NCBI GenBank assembly: GCA_026625185.1
Contig: CP113000.1
Span: 2,982,651 to 3,014,650, forward strand
Reading direction: 5' to 3'
DNA from: Thermodesulfobacteriota bacterium
GTDB lineage: Bacteria; Desulfobacterota; WTBG01; JAGOGO01
Length of the DNA: 32,000 bases
Below the pieces are notes generated by a model. The model made no database searches. It was not told where the DNA came from and was given only the letters and a program-made list of their open reading frames with translations. A program made the translations under genes and the position numbers. The stretch's first letter is position 1, and the number at the start of each line of letters is the position of its first letter. Positions 7,938 through 26,922 of this stretch are shown piece by piece.

Positions 7938-8428
7938 ACTACACCTCCTGTGTTTTAATGGTTGTGCCGCCGCCTTATTCATCCCCAGTCTGGATTTATG
8001 GATTCATAAACACCCCAGCCTGAGTCCTAAGGCGTGAGAAATATATTTAAAATTTTAATTATTATAAACGCTTTTTGAAAAAAAACAAGTCTTGATTTTA
8101 AATCTCTTTACAAAATAGGTGGTTAGCATTTTCCATCACGGTTCAAAGAATTTTTTTTAATAACATGGTCAAAAATAATTTGCAAGGAAAATTACAGCGA
8201 TTTTTTTCTGCAATAATCTTTTTCTCTTCTATCTTTTTTTATTCTTAACTTCTGTTTTGTCAGTGTATCGTTGGGTAAAAATCCTTTTAACACGCTTTTT
8301 TTGTTGACTTTTCTCCTCCAGAGGTTAAAAAAAATAAAAAAATATCAACCCAAAAAAGATAAGTAACAAAAAGGAACAGGTTTTCTTTGATGGAAAGAAT
8401 TTTTAAGACTAATGAGAATATAAAATAG

Positions 8429-8470
8429 GGCCAACTCGCCGGATATAAAGGCGATAGGCCTTTTTTATTT
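8429..8470 (+). terminator. Rho-independent-terminator-like hairpin plus T tract; first block of repeat module copy 1
   Basis: GGCCAACTCGCC-GGATATAA-GGCGATAGGCC is followed by TTTTTTATTTT. A collinear covarying counterpart lies at 25103-25140. Confidence 0.55.
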
Positions 8471-8760
8471 TCAAAAACTAGTCCCCTCTCGAATAGGGGT
8501 GGCGCGAAGCGCCGGGGTGTGTTAAATCCATTCTTGAGAGGGGTGTCACAAAGTGACGGGGTGTGTAAGAATGGGGTTTGCGTTTTTAAGAAATATGATA
8601 GTGGTGTTATATTGATCCATACAAGACACCGGTATAAATTAAATATACTATATTAACAATCTGTTAGGTAGTATTCCTAAAGTTGTTTTTAGGTTTCTTA
8701 TATTGCAAAACTTCTATTTTGCGTCTTATACGGATCAATATAATCATTGTTGCCTTGTAA
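8429..8760 (+). repeat. Composite repeat module, copy 1 (hairpin/T tract, two GGGGT-hairpin-GGGGTGTGTAA units, 19-nt TTATATTGATCCRTAYAAG motifs)
   Basis: Blocks are collinear with 25103-25340. Motif copies lie at 8607-8625 (+), 8725-8743 (inverted) and 8696-8704 (partial). TATATTAACAAT..GTTAGG lies at 8649-8668. Confidence 0.8.
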
Positions 8761-8776
8761 GATGGATTGACCATTG

Positions 8777-8814
8777 TTGACATATGAAGCCTATACACGT
8801 ATATTATACGTATA
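8777..8814 (+). promoter_or_regulatory. sigma70-like promoter with overlapping operator-like palindrome for the antitoxin/mazF pair
   Basis: TTGACA (8777-8782), a 17-nt spacer and TATATT (8800-8805). The palindrome ACGTATA-T-TATACGT overlaps the -10. AGGAGG lies 6 nt before the ATG at 8826. Confidence 0.6.
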
Positions 8815-8825
8815 GGAGGTGTGCT

Positions 8826-9056
8826 ATGCAAAAAAAGTTGACCATTACTATCGACGAAGAGGTTTATGAGGGGCTTTATAAGAATATTGGCCCTCGGAAA
8901 ATCAGCAGGTATATTCAAGAAGTTGTCCGTCCGCTTGTCATTCGCCCAAACCTTGATTCAGCTTACGCCGAAATGGCAAAAGATAAAAGACGGGAAAAGG
9001 AAACGGAAGAATGGGCTGAGATAACCTTTTTGGATGTGGCACATGAAACGCTCTGA
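8826..9056 (+). CDS. type II antitoxin, ribbon-helix-helix type, partner of MazF/PemK
   Basis: 76 aa starting MQKKLTITIDEEVYEGL (RHH beta-strand pattern), with an acidic C-terminus. Strong SD. It overlaps the downstream mazF start. The ORF-track start at 8784 lacks an SD. Confidence 0.75.
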   Translation: MQKKLTITIDEEVYEGLYKNIGPRKISRYIQEVVRPLVIRPNLDSAYAEMAKDKRREKETEEWAEITFLDVAHETL

Positions 9057-9366
9057 GGTGTGGTGGGTTAATTTTGATCCCTCAGTCCGAGGAGAAATCC
9101 GGAAGAAGCGTCCTGCCGTGATTATTAGTAATGACTCCTCAAACAAGTTCCTTAATATAGTTCAGGTTGTTCCTCTAACCGGCAAAACAGAACGCCTCTA
9201 TCCCAGCGAGGCCTTGGTGGTTTTTGAAGGAAAAGAAAGTAAAGCAATGGCGGATCAATTAGCCACCGTCAGCAAGATGCGACTCTTTAAACGGGCAGGA
9301 ATTCTTTCAGCCAAAGACATGCAACGAATTGAAGAGGCTGTTAAAATACAACTCGATATTGCCTAA
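9043..9366 (+). CDS. mazF: MazF/PemK-family mRNA interferase toxin
   Basis: MKRSEVWWVNFDPSVRGEIRKKRPAVIISND...VVPLT is the MazF/PemK signature. The start could be 9034 or 9043, and either overlaps the antitoxin stop. Confidence 0.88.
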   Translation: MKRSEVWWVNFDPSVRGEIRKKRPAVIISNDSSNKFLNIVQVVPLTGKTERLYPSEALVVFEGKESKAMADQLATVSKMRLFKRAGILSAKDMQRIEEAVKIQLDIA

Positions 9367-9369
9367 AAC

Positions 9370-9462
9370 GGCCAACAGGACGCGGCAAAACGGCGTGCCG
9401 CGTTCGCTTAGCTCGTCGATGGCGCGAAGGCTCCGAGCTCGATGTGAAAATTCCTGTTGACA
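9370..9462 (+). other. attC-like imperfect palindrome following mazF
   Basis: Outer inverted repeat CAACAGG (9374-9380) / CCTGTTG (9453-9459). AAC and GTT sit at the boundary positions (GGCCAAC ... GTTGACA). Internal stems are ACGCGGCA/TGCCGCGT and AGCTCG/CGAGCT. It starts 4 nt after the mazF stop and is locally G+C-rich. Confidence 0.4.
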
Positions 9463-9485
9463 GTAACGGTCGCCAAAGTTATACT
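9457..9485 (+). promoter_or_regulatory. sigma70-like promoter for phd-relE
   Basis: TTGACA (9457-9462), a 17-nt spacer and TATACT (9480-9485). AGGAG lies 7 nt before the ATG at 9515. Confidence 0.6.
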
Positions 9486-9514
9486 AAAGGGTAACTTTTT
9501 AAAAGGAGATAGAT

Positions 9515-9790
9515 ATGCGTTTTGCGGGCATAAAAGAACTAAAACAAGAAACCATGGACCTTATAAAAGAATCTAAACAGAATGATATTTTCATCACCTC
9601 CTACGGAAAGCCGGTAGCCGTCCTCCACCATATTACTGAAGATGATCTTGCCGATTATCTGATTGAAAATGATCCGGAGTTTAAAAGCCGGATCGAGGAA
9701 GCGTTTGCCGACTACACCGCCAAAGGCGGTATAACCGCAGAGACCATGATAAAGAAATTAAAAAAACGCAGTGGAACCAAAAAAGTTTAA
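9515..9790 (+). CDS. Phd/YefM-family type II antitoxin
   Basis: 91 aa. IKELKQETMDLIKESKQNDIFITSYGKPVAVL is the Phd/YefM N-terminal fold pattern. It overlaps the downstream toxin gene by 20 nt. Confidence 0.85.
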   Translation: MRFAGIKELKQETMDLIKESKQNDIFITSYGKPVAVLHHITEDDLADYLIENDPEFKSRIEEAFADYTAKGGITAETMIKKLKKRSGTKKV

Positions 9791-10064
9791 CATTGTCTTT
9801 GCCGGTTCTGCCCAGCGGGACTTAGAGCGCTTCGAGGCTGAGACTGCTTTACAGGTGGTGAAGGATATTAAATCCCACTTGGAAACCTCCCCCCTCGGAT
9901 TTAGGAAAACCAGGATAAAAAAATTAACCGGCTTCTCCCCGCCTCTTTACCGCCTTCGAAGCGGTGACTTTCGCGCGTATTATCGCATCCTCGCTCATAA
10001 GGTTATTATTCTAACGATCACCCATAAAAAAGACAGCGAAAAATTTTTAAAAAAGGTGAAATGA
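9771..10064 (+). CDS. relE: RelE/ParE-family type II toxin
   Basis: 97 aa with a GTG start. YRLRSGDFRAYYRI...VIILTITHKKD is the RelE/ParE C-terminal signature. Confidence 0.85.
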   Translation: MEPKKFNIVFAGSAQRDLERFEAETALQVVKDIKSHLETSPLGFRKTRIKKLTGFSPPLYRLRSGDFRAYYRILAHKVIILTITHKKDSEKFLKKVK

Positions 10065-10083
10065 CCTCTTTTCTCTAATTGTA

Positions 10084-10214
10084 GAGACTGTGTCGTAATC
10101 CAAAAATTGTGGGTAGCCGCAGCCTTTAGGCTGCGTAACATATTGAAATTACATATCCGAGAAGCGCAAGCTAAAAGCTTGCGGCTACCAAAGGGTTTAT
10201 TATTTCACAGTCTC
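10084..10214. repeat. 131-bp compound palindrome (MITE-like or long attC-like element)
   Basis: Terminal inverted repeats GAGACTGTG-nnn-TAAT (10084-10099) and ATTA-nnn-CACAGTCTC (10199-10214). Inside are two inverted subunits, GTAGCCGCAGCCTTTAGGCTGCG and CGCAAGCTAAAAGCTTGCGGCTAC, each itself a hairpin. Confidence 0.7.
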
Positions 10215-10791
10215 ATGGCCTCACTTATGGATGGCGCTGGTTTGCGTTTAATGGAATGCCTGCGGCTCCGGGTGCAGGATGTTGACTTTGGACGAAACGA
10301 GATTACCGTCCGGGACGGGAAAGGTTTTCAGGACCGAGTGACGATCCTGCCTGAATCACTCAAAAAACCCCTTCAGGATTACCTGCGAAAGGTTAAGGCG
10401 ATTCACGAAAAGGATTTGTCCGCTGGTTTGGGGCGCGTGCAAATGCCCTACGCGCTTGATCGCAAGTACCCGCACGCCCCGCTGGCAGTTGGTATTTCCC
10501 CAGGAAAAGAGGTGGAAAAACACTAAAACAGGGCAGGAAGGGCGTCACCATGTTCATGAAACCATTCTGCAAAGAGCAGTGAGGGAAGCAGTCAAAAAAG
10601 CTGATATCGTTAAGCACATTGGTTGTCACACTTTCCGCCATTCATTTGCGACTCATCTTCTGGAAAACGGTTATGACATACTAACAATTCAGAAATTATT
10701 GGGACACAAAGAAGATAGCACAACAATGATTTATACACACGTTTTGAGCAAAGGCGGGCATGGGGTTCGGAGTCCAATTGACGAGCTTTAA
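10212..10791 (+). pseudogene. intI: integron integrase (IntI, tyrosine recombinase) remnant: 5'-truncated and frameshifted
   Basis: LMASLMDGAGLRLMECLRLRVQDVDFGRNEITVRDGKG is followed by the IntI-specific insertion [10 protein letters not shown] / RWQLVFP, then [19 protein letters not shown] and [14 protein letters not shown]. Roughly 130 N-terminal residues are missing. The frame changes near 10470-10485, within GCCCCGC. Confidence 0.85.
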
Positions 10792-10948
10792 CCGGCTTAT
10801 ACAGTCTGTATAAGACCGGAGCTATCAAAACAACAAAATGGTTTAACAATATAATATTATATGATATTTATAATTTATTAGAAAAAATCGAAAACGTCTT
10901 ATACAGAAAGCAACAGTCTGTGTTTGCTGTATTATACAGACTGTATAA
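10792..10948 (+). promoter_or_regulatory. palindrome-rich AT-rich spacer (attI-like or operator region)
   Basis: CCGG-CTTATACAGTCTGTATAAG-(A)CCGG at 10792-10819, half site CGTCTTATACAG at 10895-10906, and TTATACAGACTGTATAA at 10932-10948. Confidence 0.45.
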
Positions 10949-10989
10949 TCAGTGTTGGGCGTCTCGGAATAGGGTAAGGGAAACGAAAC

Positions 10990-11397
10990 ATGACAATAAT
11001 GGACATGATTTGGGTAGCAGTAGCGTCGCTGCTTCATCCGATAACGACAGAATCAACAACAGTGACACGTGGCCAGATTGAATCACAAGTGTTAGAGCTA
11101 TTTGGCACGTCAATTACACCAGTGATGATTGAGAAACACTTGGTCAGTTTCGAGGATCGACAAGCTGATAAAGCAAATCCACGACGCGGCGGCAGTCGAA
11201 ATCGCTACCTATTCCGGACAGAGAATGGGAGAACTCCATCGCGTCAAGGCAGGTTTCGTCTCTATAAACAGGCTGATTCAACACATGACGGATGGGAGAA
11301 AACTGGCCCTACGCATCCTGAGCCCAGTGCCATCGAGCCAGAATACCGACCGCTTATAGAATGGTACAAAGCTCAATATGCGGATGCAGTTGGTTAA
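10990..11397 (+). CDS. hypothetical protein (cassette-like ORF, function unknown)
   Basis: 135-aa ORF between the intI remnant and an attC site. No motif I can name with confidence. G+C is higher than in the flanks. Confidence 0.6.
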   Translation: MTIMDMIWVAVASLLHPITTESTTVTRGQIESQVLELFGTSITPVMIEKHLVSFEDRQADKANPRRGGSRNRYLFRTENGRTPSRQGRFRLYKQADSTHDGWEKTGPTHPEPSAIEPEYRPLIEWYKAQYADAVG

Positions 11398-11412
11398 TTC
11401 TTATGGATTTTA

Positions 11413-11496
11413 CGCCCAACAAACGCTTCGAGAGGGACGCTCCAACAGCCGGCTTCGCCGCCTGTTTCCGCGCCCCTCAAGCTTAACGTTGGCGCG
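11413..11496 (+). other. integron attC recombination site (VCR-like)
   Basis: R'' GCCCAAC (11414-11420, fits RYYYAAC) is followed by AAACGCTTCGAGAGGGAC. On the other arm, CCCCTCAAGC-TTAAC precedes R' GTTGGCG (11488-11494). The arms pair imperfectly with unpaired bases. The site starts 16 nt after the ORF stop. Confidence 0.75.
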
Positions 11497-11577
11497 GACA
11501 TTTCACACCGAACTATTGCATCTCCACGAAGAAAATGATTGTTGAAAAACAACCCGTGACAAACACGTTGTTTAACT

Positions 11578-11614
11578 AAAGGACACTCCAATTTTGTGAG
11601 TGTCCTTTTTTATT
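11578..11614 (+). terminator. Rho-independent terminator
   Basis: GGACACTC-CAATTTTGT-GAGTGTCC followed by TTTTTTATT. Confidence 0.8.
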
Positions 11615-11743
11615 CTGCGACCGTGTAGACGTAAAATAAAAAATAAGATAAAGTAACAATAAAATGGAGAAAATTTCATAAAAAATATTTAAAGATTCAG
11701 CTTTCTTAAGCGCAATCACACACTATTTTCCTGCACCGGTGCC

Positions 11744-12847
11744 ATGAAAAATTCAGACCAAAGCCTTCCCGGACTTTATATCCATGTTCCCTTTTGTAAA
11801 AGCAAATGTCCTTATTGTGATTTTTATTCAATAACCTCTTTATCATTAATCCCTGCCTGGCTGTCCGGAATTAAAAAAGAAGTTCTTATCTATAAAGATC
11901 GCTTTGGGTATTTTGATTCCCTTTACCTTGGCGGCGGCACACCCACGATCATCAGTGAACCGGATTTAATTCATTTAGTTGACTATCTTTTTACCCATTT
12001 TTATTTTTCTCCAGATTCAGAGATTTCTATCGAAGCCAATCCTGACGACATTACACAGGAAAAACTAAAATTATTACGCAACCTGGGAATAAATCGGATC
12101 AGCCTCGGTGCGCAGTCTTTTAATGATTACGACCTTCTTTATCTAAGCCGAAGGCATACGGTTTTGCAAACCAGGAGAGTTATAGAAATGATAAGGTCGG
12201 CGGGATTTACCAACCTAGGAATTGATCTTATGTATGGACTCAATGGCCAAACCGAAACCGATTGGTGCAAAACACTGGAAAGCGCGGTTGACTATAAACC
12301 AGAACACATTTCCTGCTATCAATTAACCATAAAAAAAGGAACACCATTTAAACAAAAAAAATTTAAACCCCTCAATGAATCAAAAGAGCGATCACTATTC
12401 ATGAGTACTTCTGCGTTGCTCGAGCAAGCGGGCTACCTTCATTATGAAGTTTCAAATTTTGCAAGAGAAGAAAAGTATATATGCCGCCACAATGCCAAGT
12501 ATTGGAACCATACACCTTATTTAGGGCTTGGTCCGTCAGCGCATTCTTTTTCCCCTAACCAACGCTGGTGGAATGTTAAATCCCTAAATAAATATTGTGA
12601 GTTACTCCAGAAAAATAGGCCACCTCGCGCAGGTACTGAATCGCTTACGGAAGAACAACTCCAGCTCGAATATCTTTGTTTAGGACTGAGGACCAGTGCG
12701 GGAATAGATCGCCGCTTTCTGAATAACCTATCCGCGTTAAAAGAGCTAACGGATGCAAAATTAGTGAGTATTAAAGGTGGGCGGGTAGTTCCAACCCGAG
12801 AGGGCTTCCTTTTTGCCGATAGTATCCCTCTTCTCCTTTCAGAATAA
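11744..12847 (+). CDS. hemW: radical SAM heme chaperone HemW (HemN-like, coproporphyrinogen oxidase family)
   Basis: GLYIHVPFCKSKCPYCDFYS (CxxxCxxC), then YLGGGTP and RISLGAQSF motifs. 367 aa. Confidence 0.9.
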   Translation: MKNSDQSLPGLYIHVPFCKSKCPYCDFYSITSLSLIPAWLSGIKKEVLIYKDRFGYFDSLYLGGGTPTIISEPDLIHLVDYLFTHFYFSPDSEISIEANPDDITQEKLKLLRNLGINRISLGAQSFNDYDLLYLSRRHTVLQTRRVIEMIRSAGFTNLGIDLMYGLNGQTETDWCKTLESAVDYKPEHISCYQLTIKKGTPFKQKKFKPLNESKERSLFMSTSALLEQAGYLHYEVSNFAREEKYICRHNAKYWNHTPYLGLGPSAHSFSPNQRWWNVKSLNKYCELLQKNRPPRAGTESLTEEQLQLEYLCLGLRTSAGIDRRFLNNLSALKELTDAKLVSIKGGRVVPTREGFLFADSIPLLLSE

Positions 12848-24966: not shown

Positions 24967-25102
24967 CTATTCAATTTTTTTTATCATATAAACAAGGTGA
25001 AGTATTTTCCCAAGAAATAAAAAACCCAACCCGGGAATTTAGGTTAAAAAAATGTTTTAAAATTTAAGGAAAAAATATTTAATTTACCGTACAAATAAGA
25101 AA

Positions 25103-25140
25103 GCCAAATCACCTGATTTGAAGGTGATGGCCTTTTTTGT
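25103..25140 (+). terminator. Rho-independent-terminator-like hairpin plus T tract; first block of repeat module copy 2
   Basis: GCCAAATCACC-TGATTTGA-AGGTGATGGCC followed by TTTTTTGTTTTG. It is collinear with 8429-8470, and the stem changes are compensatory. Confidence 0.55.
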
Positions 25141-25340
25141 TTTGTGCCGAGATCCGGGATGCATAAAAATTAATCCCCTCTTTGAGAGGGGTATCACCAC
25201 GTGAAGGGGTGTGTAAAGTTCCGGGGTATTATATTGATCCATATAAGAATATTTAAAATAGATTATATTAACAATAGTTAGGTTTCTTATACGGATTAGG
25301 CAACCAATTTGGGGCCTTATATTGATCCGTATAATAACTG
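25103..25340 (+). repeat. Composite repeat module, copy 2
   Basis: One CCCCTCT/AGAGGGG hairpin plus a GGGGT-ATCAC-CAC-GTGAA-GGGGTGTGTAAA unit (25175-25216). 19-nt motifs at 25229-25247 and 25316-25334, with a partial inverted copy at 25286-25296. TATATTAACAAT-AGTTAGG at 25264-25282. Confidence 0.8.
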
Positions 25341-25376
25341 TTCTACGTAACAAATATAAATTAAGACAATACAAAG

Positions 25377-26570
25377 ATGATCAATTACTCAGCTTTTATA
25401 AACGAATTCTCAGAACACTGCCCTTTCGAGGCGTTCTATGAAAAAGGCATTACTTCAGACGATATAAAAGCAGCCATACTCAAGACTTTTGAACCCTATT
25501 TTGAAAACCAGGAACGACTAAAAGAATATTCCATGCTATGGCTAATCGGTGGTTGGGTTAACTTTTCCAAATTTAAGACAAATCAATGGCACTTTGATAA
25601 ATTTGAAAAATGCCTGGCTTTTCTGAATCAGGCGAAGAAACAAAATGTGCCGTGCTGTAACATTGTTGCCGAGTGGCTTCCAGAATTTAACAGAGGTCTT
25701 TCAAAATTCTGGAGCTTCAGAAAATTGTCTAAGGATTTGGAAGAATTAGATAACGAAGAGTTCTTAGAAGAGAGTTTAAAGCTGATTGGTCAAATTACAG
25801 AAGGCATAACGAAAGCATACCTCAGATGCCTGCTGCATATAAGCAGAGTTTCAAGGGGGCAGCAGGTTAGCAAACAGACGATTATAAATCTTGATTTGGG
25901 CATTGTTGTTGATGAATTAATCAGAAACACCAGTTTTCCCGAATTGTTTTCGCCCCCACCGTGGAACATTAAATTAAGCCAGTGGCGAAATATTGCATAT
26001 CATCATAATGCAAAACTCGAAAACGATAATTTTCTTTGCTGGTAGGGGAAAGATCCGAATATAAGGACATGCACGCTTAGCCGAAATGAACTACTTGAGG
26101 CAGTGCGGTCCATTTTCAACATCTATAACGTCTTTCTAAATGTTGAACTAGTTTATGTCTTTGACAACTTGCCTGAATACCAAGCTGCACTCACTGCCGC
26201 TGGGATAGCAGACACTAGTTTACGAGAGGAAGCAAGTATTCTCGACCTTTTCGCTGGCATAAATTCTCAAGGCTTCAAAATTATCGACTTTTCTAAAGAT
26301 GACACTGGCTGCAAATTGACAGTTCAAGATATGACTGACGGAGATATCAAGAGGCGCGCAATTCATTCGTCACAGTTTCTATATTCGTTGTGGTTCTATA
26401 CTCAATCGCCACAACTGAGTGTTGAGTACAGACTGAAAAATGGACAATCCTATCTAATTTCCAGGACAAATAAAGACGTTTGTGAAAAGATTGGTAATAA
26501 CGAACGCGGTATAGAGTATCTTGCGGAAAAAGTCGAATTCAAATTTATAAATAATGATACAAAAACGTAG
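25377..26570 (+). pseudogene. 397-codon reading frame with a HEPN-like Rx4H motif, interrupted by one in-frame TAG (26043-26045)
   Basis: The ORFs at 25377..26045 and 26103..26570 share one frame (26103-25377=726). Only the TAG separates them, and the second ORF has no ATG or SD. RNIAYH lies at codons 204-209 (25986-26003). Confidence 0.6.
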
Positions 26571-26650
26571 AACAATCAAATCCACTGGACAGCGAATAGC
26601 CGCTTTTTTGAATTCAATAGCCGGTTGCCGCTGCCAGTGATTTGTTCCGT
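26567..26650 (+). other. attC-like 84-bp imperfect palindrome overlapping the ORF stop codon
   Basis: GTAGAAC (26567-26573) faces GTTCCGT (26644-26650). Pairing blocks are AACAA/TTGTT, ATC/GAT, CACTGG/CCAGTG and CAGCG/CGCTG, with unpaired bases. Same length as the attC at 11413-11496. Confidence 0.45.
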
Positions 26651-26922
26651 TACGAGAAAATAAAATTGTTGATTTTCAATAACGTTCCAAGCTATTCATT
26701 CGATCATAAAAAATGATTAACTACCACAATGATTCTATTAAACGATAGGTTCAAAGCAAATACCTTGGAGGGAAAAACATGGAAGAAATTAACGCCTTCA
26801 TTAAGTTTGCGAATGAAAATAAATCGCGCTGCTAAAAAAAGCTAAAAAATCCATTAAACTTCTCGAGGCAATCAGACAGCGAGAAGTTGTAACCCAACTG
26901 TATTTCAGGTCGGAGCATACTT

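Follow-up and report, generated by a model that had tools for sequence, protein, structure and literature searches.

Background

By definition an integron has one attI site, the recipient site used by its integrase, IntI, and attI1 of class 1 integrons carries the upstream direct repeats DR1 and DR2. The attC sites of gene cassettes are imperfect palindromes of 57-141 nucleotides (nt) that fold into hairpins, with an R'' box (RYYYAAC) complementary to an R' box (GTTRRRY) and with L'' and L' boxes. Toxin-antitoxin pairs are enriched in chromosomal integrons, and integron cassettes without an open reading frame (ORF) that have promoter activity or specify small RNAs are known from studies of oral metagenomes and of Xanthomonas. 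Here we describe a composite intergenic module that is present twice in a stretch of 32,000 nt from a Thermodesulfobacteriota bacterium (assembly GCA_026625185.1, contig CP113000.1, positions 2,982,651 to 3,014,650 of the forward strand; this whole stretch is called the window), and whose right-hand half was identified as an integron attachment site.

The attI sites have been described as poorly conserved, and an intI gene transcribed toward attI and the cassettes as the atypical layout of Treponema integrons (PMC3607928). The IntegronFinder classes CALIN and SALIN comprise attC sites without an integron integrase (PMC4889954), the working criterion being recognition by the attC covariance model and the absence of intI inside 4 kb. 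Gene cassettes of the delta-attI type have been reported in mobile integrons, and attI1-aadB-attI1 constructs are functional (PMC12901181).

The site family represented in the window shares with attI sites such as attI1 of class 1 integrons a putative role as recipient site, with intI beside it in relatives, a simple site that ends in an R box of the GTTAGGC type, a crossover at G|TT, and canonical attC cassettes directly behind it. A degenerate direct repeat within the site (B, see below) may be likened to DR1/DR2. The site differs from attI1 in being built on an 18-bp palindrome, and from attI sites in general in its strong conservation across at least eight phyla, in a distal inverted site at a fixed distance of about 125 nt, and in being found more than once per genome, as well as in arrays, with no intI beside it. 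In layout it agrees with the Treponema denticola type (the 'inverted integrase' group), in which intI and the cassettes share a strand and the intI stop codon is closely followed by the site; detailed characterisation is lacking for the attI sites known from that group, whereas the site described here is defined to the base.

Probable attI-type sites in the two modules

The two modules, copy 1 and copy 2, are read here as orphan (integrase-less), multi-copy integron platforms of the attI type, preceded by an RNA-like repeat and by units resembling repetitive extragenic palindromic (REP) elements, and we assign this reading a probability of about 0.8. A docking site of the integron type would explain why unrelated accessory genes sit directly behind each copy. 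The attachment site is assigned from its membership in a family of related sites, the adjacency of intI in relatives, the breakpoints at G|TT, the complementarity between cassette heads and R'' boxes, and a dead intI gene in the window. Judged by its sequence, copy 2 has demonstrably received a canonical cassette; copy 1 has probably received a cassette. The coordinates of all features are collected in Table 1.

A first-pass annotation of the window had listed blocks shared in the same order by 8429-8760 (copy 1) and 25103-25340 (copy 2), and block-by-block alignment confirmed them. Both copies contain the hairpin with its T tract (8429-8466 and 25103-25138), and the stem of this putative terminator differs between them by a compensatory change (TCGCC/GGCGA in copy 1, TCACC/GGTGA in copy 2). 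The hairpin units that follow, here called U, number two in copy 1 and one in copy 2, as had been noted, and the sequence GGGGTGTGTAA is enriched in the window (4 matches at no more than 1 mismatch, compared with 0.34 expected). The motif TATATTAACAAT..GTTAGGT was likewise found in both copies. The interval first given for copy 1 holds these blocks, and its left edge was moved outward to approximately 8285; the hairpin is the 3' end of a repeat of about 170 nt, here called T.

The 19-nt motif reported by the first-pass annotation is real, with 6 matches at no more than 3 mismatches compared with 0.01 expected by chance. These matches represent 4 distinct sites, at 8607(+), 8725(-), 25229(+) and 25317(+), because the two near-palindromic sites of copy 2 also match on the other strand. 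The description of its copies as direct and inverted needs to be qualified: such copies exist, but the motif is itself a palindrome (TTATAT-N6-ATATAA), so that the distinction concerns only its centre of 6-8 nt.

The composite had been regarded as a single portable module that matched no named element. No sign was seen of the composite moving as one; it is a recurrent mosaic of three separable repeat families, namely T, U and the integron attachment site, and several members of the last family lie directly 3' of integron integrases that pass the TIGR02249 cut-off. The order of the blocks recurs among the loci that were compared with the window (labelled L with a number), as T-U-site in L026, U-site in L184 and T-site in L151, L196, L216 and L225. 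The earlier view that the copies do not mark the two borders of a single island was upheld, as was the proposal that they are recombination platforms with accessory cargo behind them: among 67 ORFs tabulated immediately after family sites, each Pfam family is represented at most twice. This cargo includes Thoeris ThsA/ThsB, TIR and Abi_C proteins, a restriction enzyme, methyltransferases, toxin-antitoxin genes and many ORFs without a match. Such heterogeneous cargo, with its many defence and toxin-antitoxin genes, is what integron cassettes would be expected to carry, and it fits the enrichment of toxin-antitoxin pairs in chromosomal integrons.

Crossover point and captured cassettes

The identity of related loci stops right after G|TT. 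The sites of L197 and L250 are 100% identical over 96 nt and diverge exactly after ...ACATTGTT, and those of L196 and L222 behave likewise. One downstream cassette was also found behind different sites, both in the comparison of L196 with L222 and in that of L184 with L225.

The head of a cassette is complementary to the R'' box of its own attC, because the bases after G|TT come from that attC. This complementarity was observed at 9 of 9 positions for copy 2 (head GTTCTACGT at 25340, R'' ACGTAGAAC at 26565-26573) and again at 9 of 9 positions for the site behind the dead intI gene (head GTTGGGCGT at 10954, R'' ACGCCCAAC at 11412), as well as at 10/10 positions in L218 and 8/8 in L186. Across 145 non-redundant sites, a 9-mer complementary to the head was present within 0.1-3.5 kb downstream in 20 cases, at distances of 0.4-1.7 kb, and upstream in 2 (search spaces of equal size, 281 kb versus 273 kb); 18 of the 20 downstream matches are genuine, each being followed by a typical attC 5' end. 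With 10-mers the counts were 11 downstream and 1 upstream.

The attC that closes the cassette behind copy 2 (26563-26660) folds into a hairpin with bulged bases (z-score, z, of -3.1), and inspection by eye of the copy 2 locus found this one canonical attC and no intI. The attC of the cassette behind the dead intI gene (11408-11500) forms a bulged hairpin on the bottom strand (-28.5 kcal/mol, z = -4.6). The copy 2 arrangement is also present in a second sample (L256), recognised through DUF1456 homologues. In L257 the DUF1456 protein is 87% identical and the upstream genes are different, which gave no usable comparison with an empty site, and a lookup of RpsB for strain comparison returned the source contig only.

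Association with integron integrases

The ORFs of family loci were probed with an IntI1 sequence, which served as a probe only; all integrase calls rest on NCBIfam. Strong matches to the probe were obtained in L164, L218 and L237, and in two adjacent frames of the window, at 10065-10788. In these three loci the site immediately adjoins intI. The intI gene of L164 scores 487 bits against TIGR02249 (cut-off 265) and ends about 150 nt before the site. Genes or remnants of intI that share a locus with the site were identified by tblastn in L166, L170, L072, L179, L134 and L038; in L218 and L170 intI is directly adjacent to the site, and the remnant in L166 lies approximately 1.7 kb away. The site is common to integrases that have diverged to 48% identity.

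In L218 the intI stop codon is followed by A, B and C (...AAACAATGTTAGCC), an ORF of 194 aa, a canonical GC-rich attC (GGCTAAC...GTTAGGC) and the next ORF. Here, as in L164 and in the window (10215-10956), intI and the cassettes are on the same strand.

The window itself contains an intI pseudogene 1.3 kb downstream of copy 1, which the first-pass annotation had not included in its finding. Its two frames match successive parts of TIGR02249 in NCBIfam, model positions 121-210 being covered by 10215-10523 and positions 210-315 by 10456-10791, and the gene is therefore considered a 5'-truncated, frameshifted intI. It is 54-75% identical to the IntI of L164 (tblastn). The site that follows it repeats the layout of the modules (A'-B'-C') around another palindrome centre. 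Two toxin-antitoxin operons lie between copy 1 and this dead intI, and T and U are found in the modules where a complete integron has intI.

Anatomy and distribution of the attachment site

The core of the site is the palindrome TTATAC-GGATCA-ATATAA followed by ACATT-GTTAGGC, and the family consensus in the orientation of the downstream gene is ATTTTTGGGGTC-TTATACGGATCAATATAA-ACATTGTTAGGC. The search patterns prescribed the palindrome together with the CA behind it; positions that the patterns left free are also conserved (TTTTGGGGT and TTGTTAGGC), and conserved flanks are found upstream (TTTTGGGGTC) and downstream (ATTGTTAGGC) of the palindrome. On the other side of the conserved block there are several subfamilies.

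The core constitutes the block called C. B is located 31-34 nt upstream of C in 36/36 sites with a detected B. The distal site A, with the family motif GATCCGTATAAGAC, is present in 27 family members at 95-130 nt upstream of C, the distance being 123-130 nt in 25 of the 27. In copy 1, A and C form a 21-bp stem as single-stranded DNA (z = -7.0), in which only the palindrome region pairs. The inner motif between A and B, TTAACAAT..GTTAGGT in both window copies and also in L096 and L184, resembles the simple site, and this inner palindrome may be a relic junction.

The C palindrome of copy 2 has its 8-nt centre reversed, reading TTGATCCG for CGGATCAA, while its flanks keep the orientation of the family. 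A canonical cassette is joined at the G|TT of copy 2 despite this reversed centre.

More than 140 relatives of the site were recovered, from Syntrophales and at least seven other phyla. A scan of the genome collection with the bare 18-nt palindrome was unspecific, approximately 90 of its 114 hits being due to chance, and about two dozen were true members by their extended flanks. These are labelled Syntrophales/Smithellaceae, Ignavibacteria, Zixibacteriota, Peptococcaceae, Phycisphaerae, Latescibacterota and Acidobacteriota, together with one metagenome-assembled genome labelled Actinomycetes. A more specific scan of metagenomes gave at least 120 loci, and nearly all of those listed are true members. 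An unrelated ORF begins about 10-30 nt behind almost every site, with a ribosome-binding site and start codon close behind (palindrome-to-start distance: median 40 nt, mode 20-45 nt).

A looser search revealed arrays of C blocks in the same orientation, spaced by 0.4-2.9 kb, in many loci (including L025, L150, L186 and L238). In L238 (700-3290), a compact conserved element of about 75 nt is all that lies between one small ORF and the next in a row of four or five, and no canonical attC intervenes; the element consists of GGGGACGTCC, an AT-rich stretch, TTTTTAACAAC, GGGGTC, the palindrome and ACATTGTTAGGC. These ORFs are candidates for cassettes with attI-type sites as their boundaries. L186 holds palindrome-type sites together with a canonical attC. 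The attI-like cassette boundaries of L238 and L186 recall the delta-attI cassettes, which differ in being rare products of clinical class 1 and class 2 integrons and not a high-copy chromosomal feature.

The arrays also resemble those of the Vibrio cholerae repeats (VCRs), an example of the conserved, lineage-specific cassette repeats of sedentary chromosomal integrons, in that a highly similar repeat lies in one orientation between small ORFs, mostly of unknown function; VCRs, in contrast, are hairpin attC sites with complementary R'' and R' boxes. An identity as hairpin attC was ruled out for the palindrome-type sites, which have no R'' complementary to R'. In the compact type-b sites the constant TTTTAAC does not match the variable heads, and the canonical attC sites in the same loci are of a separate, GC-rich type. 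As in CALIN and SALIN, cassettes and recombination sites persist here without a neighbouring integrase; CALIN, however, are defined by attC, whereas the conserved element in these loci is attI-like and heads the locus.

Structure of the T and U repeats

About 65 copies of T were found by nhmmer, in loci of the Syntrophales type (L196, L222, L203, L210, L186, L062 and L107 among them), and T is always oriented as the cassettes are. A TTGAC -35 box is kept in 26 of 28 aligned copies, with a TAAAAA box 16-17 nt later. The region of about 125 nt that follows is A-rich, and the terminator stem covaries in the alignment of 28 sequences. Folds of single T sequences gave z values from -0.9 to -3.3, with a few compensatory changes in a 5' helix. 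A small conserved ORF in T was ruled out, as frames and stop codons vary between copies.

In searches of Rfam, there was no match at gathering thresholds in the whole window, and 8200-8900 gave only chance-level matches at E values up to 10. T is regarded as a candidate for a new small-RNA gene or regulated leader, without an Rfam match, that is tied to cassette arrays. The suggestion that the module is a promoter or non-coding RNA unit is plausible for this left-hand unit only. Like the known ORF-less cassettes, T is non-coding, has its own predicted promoter and terminator, and lies within cassette arrays; it differs from them in being a single high-copy family upstream of attachment sites.

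U is a family of 44-nt, REP-like double hairpins, sometimes in tandem, whose units end in GGGGTGTGTAA. Hairpin 2 varies in a compensatory manner between copies (GGCGC/GCGCC, GTCAC/GTGAC, TCAC/GTGA), and hairpin 1 together with its T run resembles a terminator on the minus strand. Further U units were found in L242 (4530-4620), L160, L182, L184 (269-308), L026 (2213-2256) and L096. Both T and U are also found away from attachment sites.

Proposed mechanism

The right-hand half of each module (A, inner motif, B and C) would be an attI-type site of the clade in which intI is transcribed toward the cassettes. An integron integrase, presumably encoded in the same genome and supplied in trans since the local copy is dead, would bind the simple site that ends C, which consists of the right half of the palindrome, ATATAA(A), and ACATT-GTTAGGC. 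B, as a direct repeat, and A, inverted and about 125 nt upstream, would probably be accessory binding sites. At G|TT, the integrase would then recombine the site with a circular cassette through the folded attC that the cassette carries, and the cassette would land directly behind the module. T, with a plus-strand terminator, and U, with a minus-strand terminator, could as a pair insulate the platform, and T may in addition be a small-RNA gene or a regulated leader.

Assessment of the integron reading and of alternative explanations

Several observations weigh against the interpretation of the modules as integron platforms. Three sites of this architecture are present in 32 kb, and arrays are present elsewhere, whereas one attI per integron is expected; with several sites per locus, some may be unusual attC-like sites, attI-type sites between cassettes, or relics. 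That the palindrome is invariant in the family is due in part to the search patterns, which demanded it. Neither window copy has an intact intI beside it, and no intI lies near copy 2. The R box of copy 1 (GTTGCCT) departs from GTTRRRY at the RRR positions, as does that of copy 2 (GTTCTAC); the family box is GTTAGGC. In addition, no R'' complementary to the head of copy 1 (GTTGCCTTG) was found in the copy 1 cargo, and the boundary of the copy 1 cassette is for this reason unproven.

It is possible, though doubtful, that the composite is not a functional unit at all, and that T, U and the attachment site, as three unrelated short repeat families, pile up in the same permissive intergenic spots, their shared order resulting from common descent or from insertion preference. 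Such accumulation would account for the blocks that occur alone (T in L096, L090, L107 and L186; U in L242, L160 and L182), for attachment sites with neither T nor U in other phyla, and for the variation in copy number and spacing, since U occurs twice in copy 1, once in copy 2 and not in L151, L196, L216 and L225. It is less easily reconciled with the recurrence of the order T, U, site, with all three oriented alike, in copy 1, copy 2, L026 and L184, with the fixed distance of about 215 nt between T and the site in four more loci, and with the constant orientation of T toward the cassettes.

A mainly regulatory role of the site is improbable. In such a case a dimeric repressor would use the palindrome, which overlaps a -10 box, as its operator, with A and B as auxiliary looping operators, and the element would have spread as a 'mobile promoter'. 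The 6-6-6 layout of the palindrome, the TATAAT/TATAAA sequence in the gene-proximal half, start codons at distances typical of 5' untranslated regions and the fixed A-to-C spacing of about 125 nt are in line with this, and a conserved T-rich stretch with GGGG is located where a -35 box would be expected. The match of this -35 region to the sigma-70 consensus is poor, however; the promoter scan predicted no plus-strand promoter in copy 2, and the toxin-antitoxin cargo of copy 1 has a strong predicted promoter of its own downstream of the site (8777-8805). The breakpoints at G|TT, the complementarity between heads and R'' boxes and the adjacency of intI would also be left unexplained, and a regulatory role fits alongside the integron reading as an extra function, much like that of a Pc promoter, rather than competing with it.

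The segment from A to C could also be viewed as a miniature inverted-repeat transposable element (MITE) with terminal inverted repeats and an outward promoter, which a transposase would spread and which would persist wherever it drives adjacent genes, and for which the Correia elements of Neisseria offer a comparison. This is very unlikely. The element does have many copies, A and C of copy 1 are 21-nt inverted repeats about 100 nt apart that form a long hairpin (z = -7.0), and a TATAAT/TATAAA box in the outer half of C faces the downstream gene; yet no target-site duplications flank the sites, the outermost ends are asymmetric and only the inner GATCCGTATAAGAC is symmetrical, and most family members have C without A. 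Moreover, every copy faces a downstream ORF at short distance, no transposase was found, the enzyme linked to the site being an integron integrase, and the breakpoints lie at G|TT with attC-bounded cassettes.

The least probable alternative, that the A-C segment is an inverton in which a tyrosine recombinase flips a promoter to toggle the downstream gene, is suggested by the inverted repeats flanking about 100 nt directly upstream of genes, by the inclusion of DNA invertases among the tyrosine recombinases (weak NCBIfam matches to invertases were obtained) and by the flipped centre of the C palindrome in copy 2, but in copy 2 that centre alone is flipped and B is not, B keeps its 31-34 nt distance from C in 36/36 sites (a second B-like match, close to A, was seen in L026 alone), and no inverted interior was seen among the 27 A-bearing sites or in identically flanked loci, raw reads not having been examined.

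On the basis of the sequence we rejected type III toxin-antitoxin repeats, a CRISPR leader, a dif/Xer site, Fur, FNR or IHF boxes, and ends of IS200/605 or Tn7. A Tn7/Mu-like end (5'-TGT with subterminal repeats) was dropped as well, there being no transposase inside the ends and the elements being short and intergenic.

Features of the window and neighbouring genes

Table 1. Coordinates of the module blocks, attachment sites, cassettes and integrase remnant in the window
Feature	Position	Strand	Remarks
T element, full copy (copy 1)	8285-8478	+	about 65 copies in related loci by nhmmer
Promoter-like part of T, copy 1			T-rich upstream stretch; -35 TTGACT 8294-8299; TAAAAA -10-like box about 8316-8321
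Putatively transcribed part of T, copy 1			putative transcribed region of about 125 nt; terminator hairpin 8429-8460; T tract 8461-8466
U units, tandem pair (copy 1)	8479-8526 and 8522-8569	+	hairpin 1 CCCCTCT/AGAGGGG, variable hairpin 2, then GGGGTGTGT
A site, copy 1	8607-8627	+	distal inverted copy of GTCTTATAYGG inside palindrome TTATATTGATCCATACAAGAC
Inner palindrome resembling simple site, copy 1	8650-8670	+	TATATTAACAAT-CT-GTTAGGT (TAACA/TGTTA)
B, copy 1	8693-8722	+	degenerate direct repeat of C
C, copy 1	8725-8751	+	CTTATAC-GGATCA-ATATAA-TCATT-GTT; presumed crossover G|TT, G at 8749
Cargo behind copy 1	8826-10064	+	unannotated 76-aa ORF 8826-9056; MazF 9034-9366 (Pfam)
Degenerate attC-like hairpin after mazF	9362-9420	+	weak fold, z -0.45
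Phd-like antitoxin and ParE toxin pair	9515-10064	+	Pfam
intI pseudogene	10215-10791	+	5'-truncated (about 120 N-terminal codons gone); frameshift near 10480-10500
Site 3' of dead intI	10795-10956	+	A' CCGGCTTATACAGTCTGTATAAGACCGG; TTTAACAAT motif; B' GTCTTATACAGAAAGC; read from sequence
C' at dead-intI site			TTATACAGACTGTATAAT-CAGT-GTTGGGC; G|TT at 10954
Cassette behind dead-intI site	10990-11500	+	ORF 10990-11397 without NCBIfam match; canonical attC about 11412-11495
T 3' part, copy 2	25095-25143	+	hairpin 25103-25132; T tract 25133-25138; nhmmer model positions 94-143
U unit, copy 2	25170-25217	+	single
Attachment site, copy 2	25229-25342	+	A 25229-25249; inner TATATTAACAAT-A-GTTAGGT 25264-25283; B 25284-25301
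C, copy 2	25316-25342	+	CTTATATTGATCCGTATAAT-AACT-GTT; G|TT at 25340
Cassette behind copy 2	25340-26655	+	ORFs 25377-26045 and 26103-26570, neither with family match; canonical attC 26565-26655 at the end

Copy 1 is located between the divergently transcribed rpsB gene and two toxin-antitoxin operons, and copy 2 between an ABC transporter and two ORFs without a family match. The first of the two pairs behind copy 1 had been annotated as a ribbon-helix-helix antitoxin with mazF; MazF was matched by Pfam, and the 76-aa ORF before it had no Pfam match. A BLAST search of 8285-8760 against plasmid and phage collections found nothing similar, a tRNA scan gave nothing useful, and a full-text literature search with the motif strings returned primer coincidences only and no relevant paper.

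An orthologous locus, L184, was recognised by its hemW gene (83% amino-acid identity) and by 89% nucleotide identity to 11542-11760 of the window. Its hemW is preceded by a U unit and a type-a site; the cassettes differ from those of the window, and intI is absent. This apparent pairing of a conserved platform with variable cargo is integron behaviour.

Toxin-antitoxin pairs are frequent right behind sites, as in the window (8826-10064), L186 (811-1364 in gene orientation), L137, L234 and L254. The pair types include a small unannotated ORF with MazF, a Phd-like protein with ParE, and, by eye, BrnT/BrnA-like, HicB-like and VapB-like pairs.

At 10117-10195 the window has an insert of about 80 nt with nested hairpins (GGGTAGCCGCAGCCTTTAGGCTGC...GCAAGCTAAAAGCTTGCGGCTACC), within a segment that the inverted repeat GAGACTGTG/CACAGTCTC borders on either side. 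In L184 the corresponding homologous segment (121-211) is without this insert, which may thus be a mobile hairpin element of small size. A further stretch, G(A/T)TGGCGCGGACGCTTCGCGCC(GCAGCACGTTAGG), recurs right after attachment-site crossover points in L184 (491-640), in L145 (after attC) and, in part, in the window (9418-9432); it is also present after the last attC before hemW, both in the window (11481-11500) and in L184 (1487-1510). This stretch could represent what was once the right half of attI, or else a very small cassette without an ORF.

Conclusions

Bacteria of anaerobic sediments and digesters, Syntrophales above all, may carry a distinct integron system, although we consider this broader picture rather unlikely to hold in full. 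Its attachment site would be a palindromic, double-stranded site of the attI type, shared across phyla, present in many copies and doubling as the site between cassettes; its platforms would work in trans, without an adjoining integrase, and T would stand in front of them as a high-copy RNA unit made of promoter, leader and terminator. If so, cassettes could move by recombination between two attI-like sites as well as between attI and attC, and T would be a small RNA or a conditional terminator that gates the expression of captured genes.

In conclusion, the analysis defines to the base the attachment site of a little-known group of integrons with intI and cassettes co-oriented, present in many uncultured phyla, and indicates that such sites can be strongly conserved, present in multiple copies and detached from an integrase. 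Programs for integron detection that are keyed on intI and hairpin attC sites would consequently miss or misclassify these loci. The 30-nt block offers a simple probe with which the cassette cargo of anaerobic metagenomes, defence systems included, could be mined.

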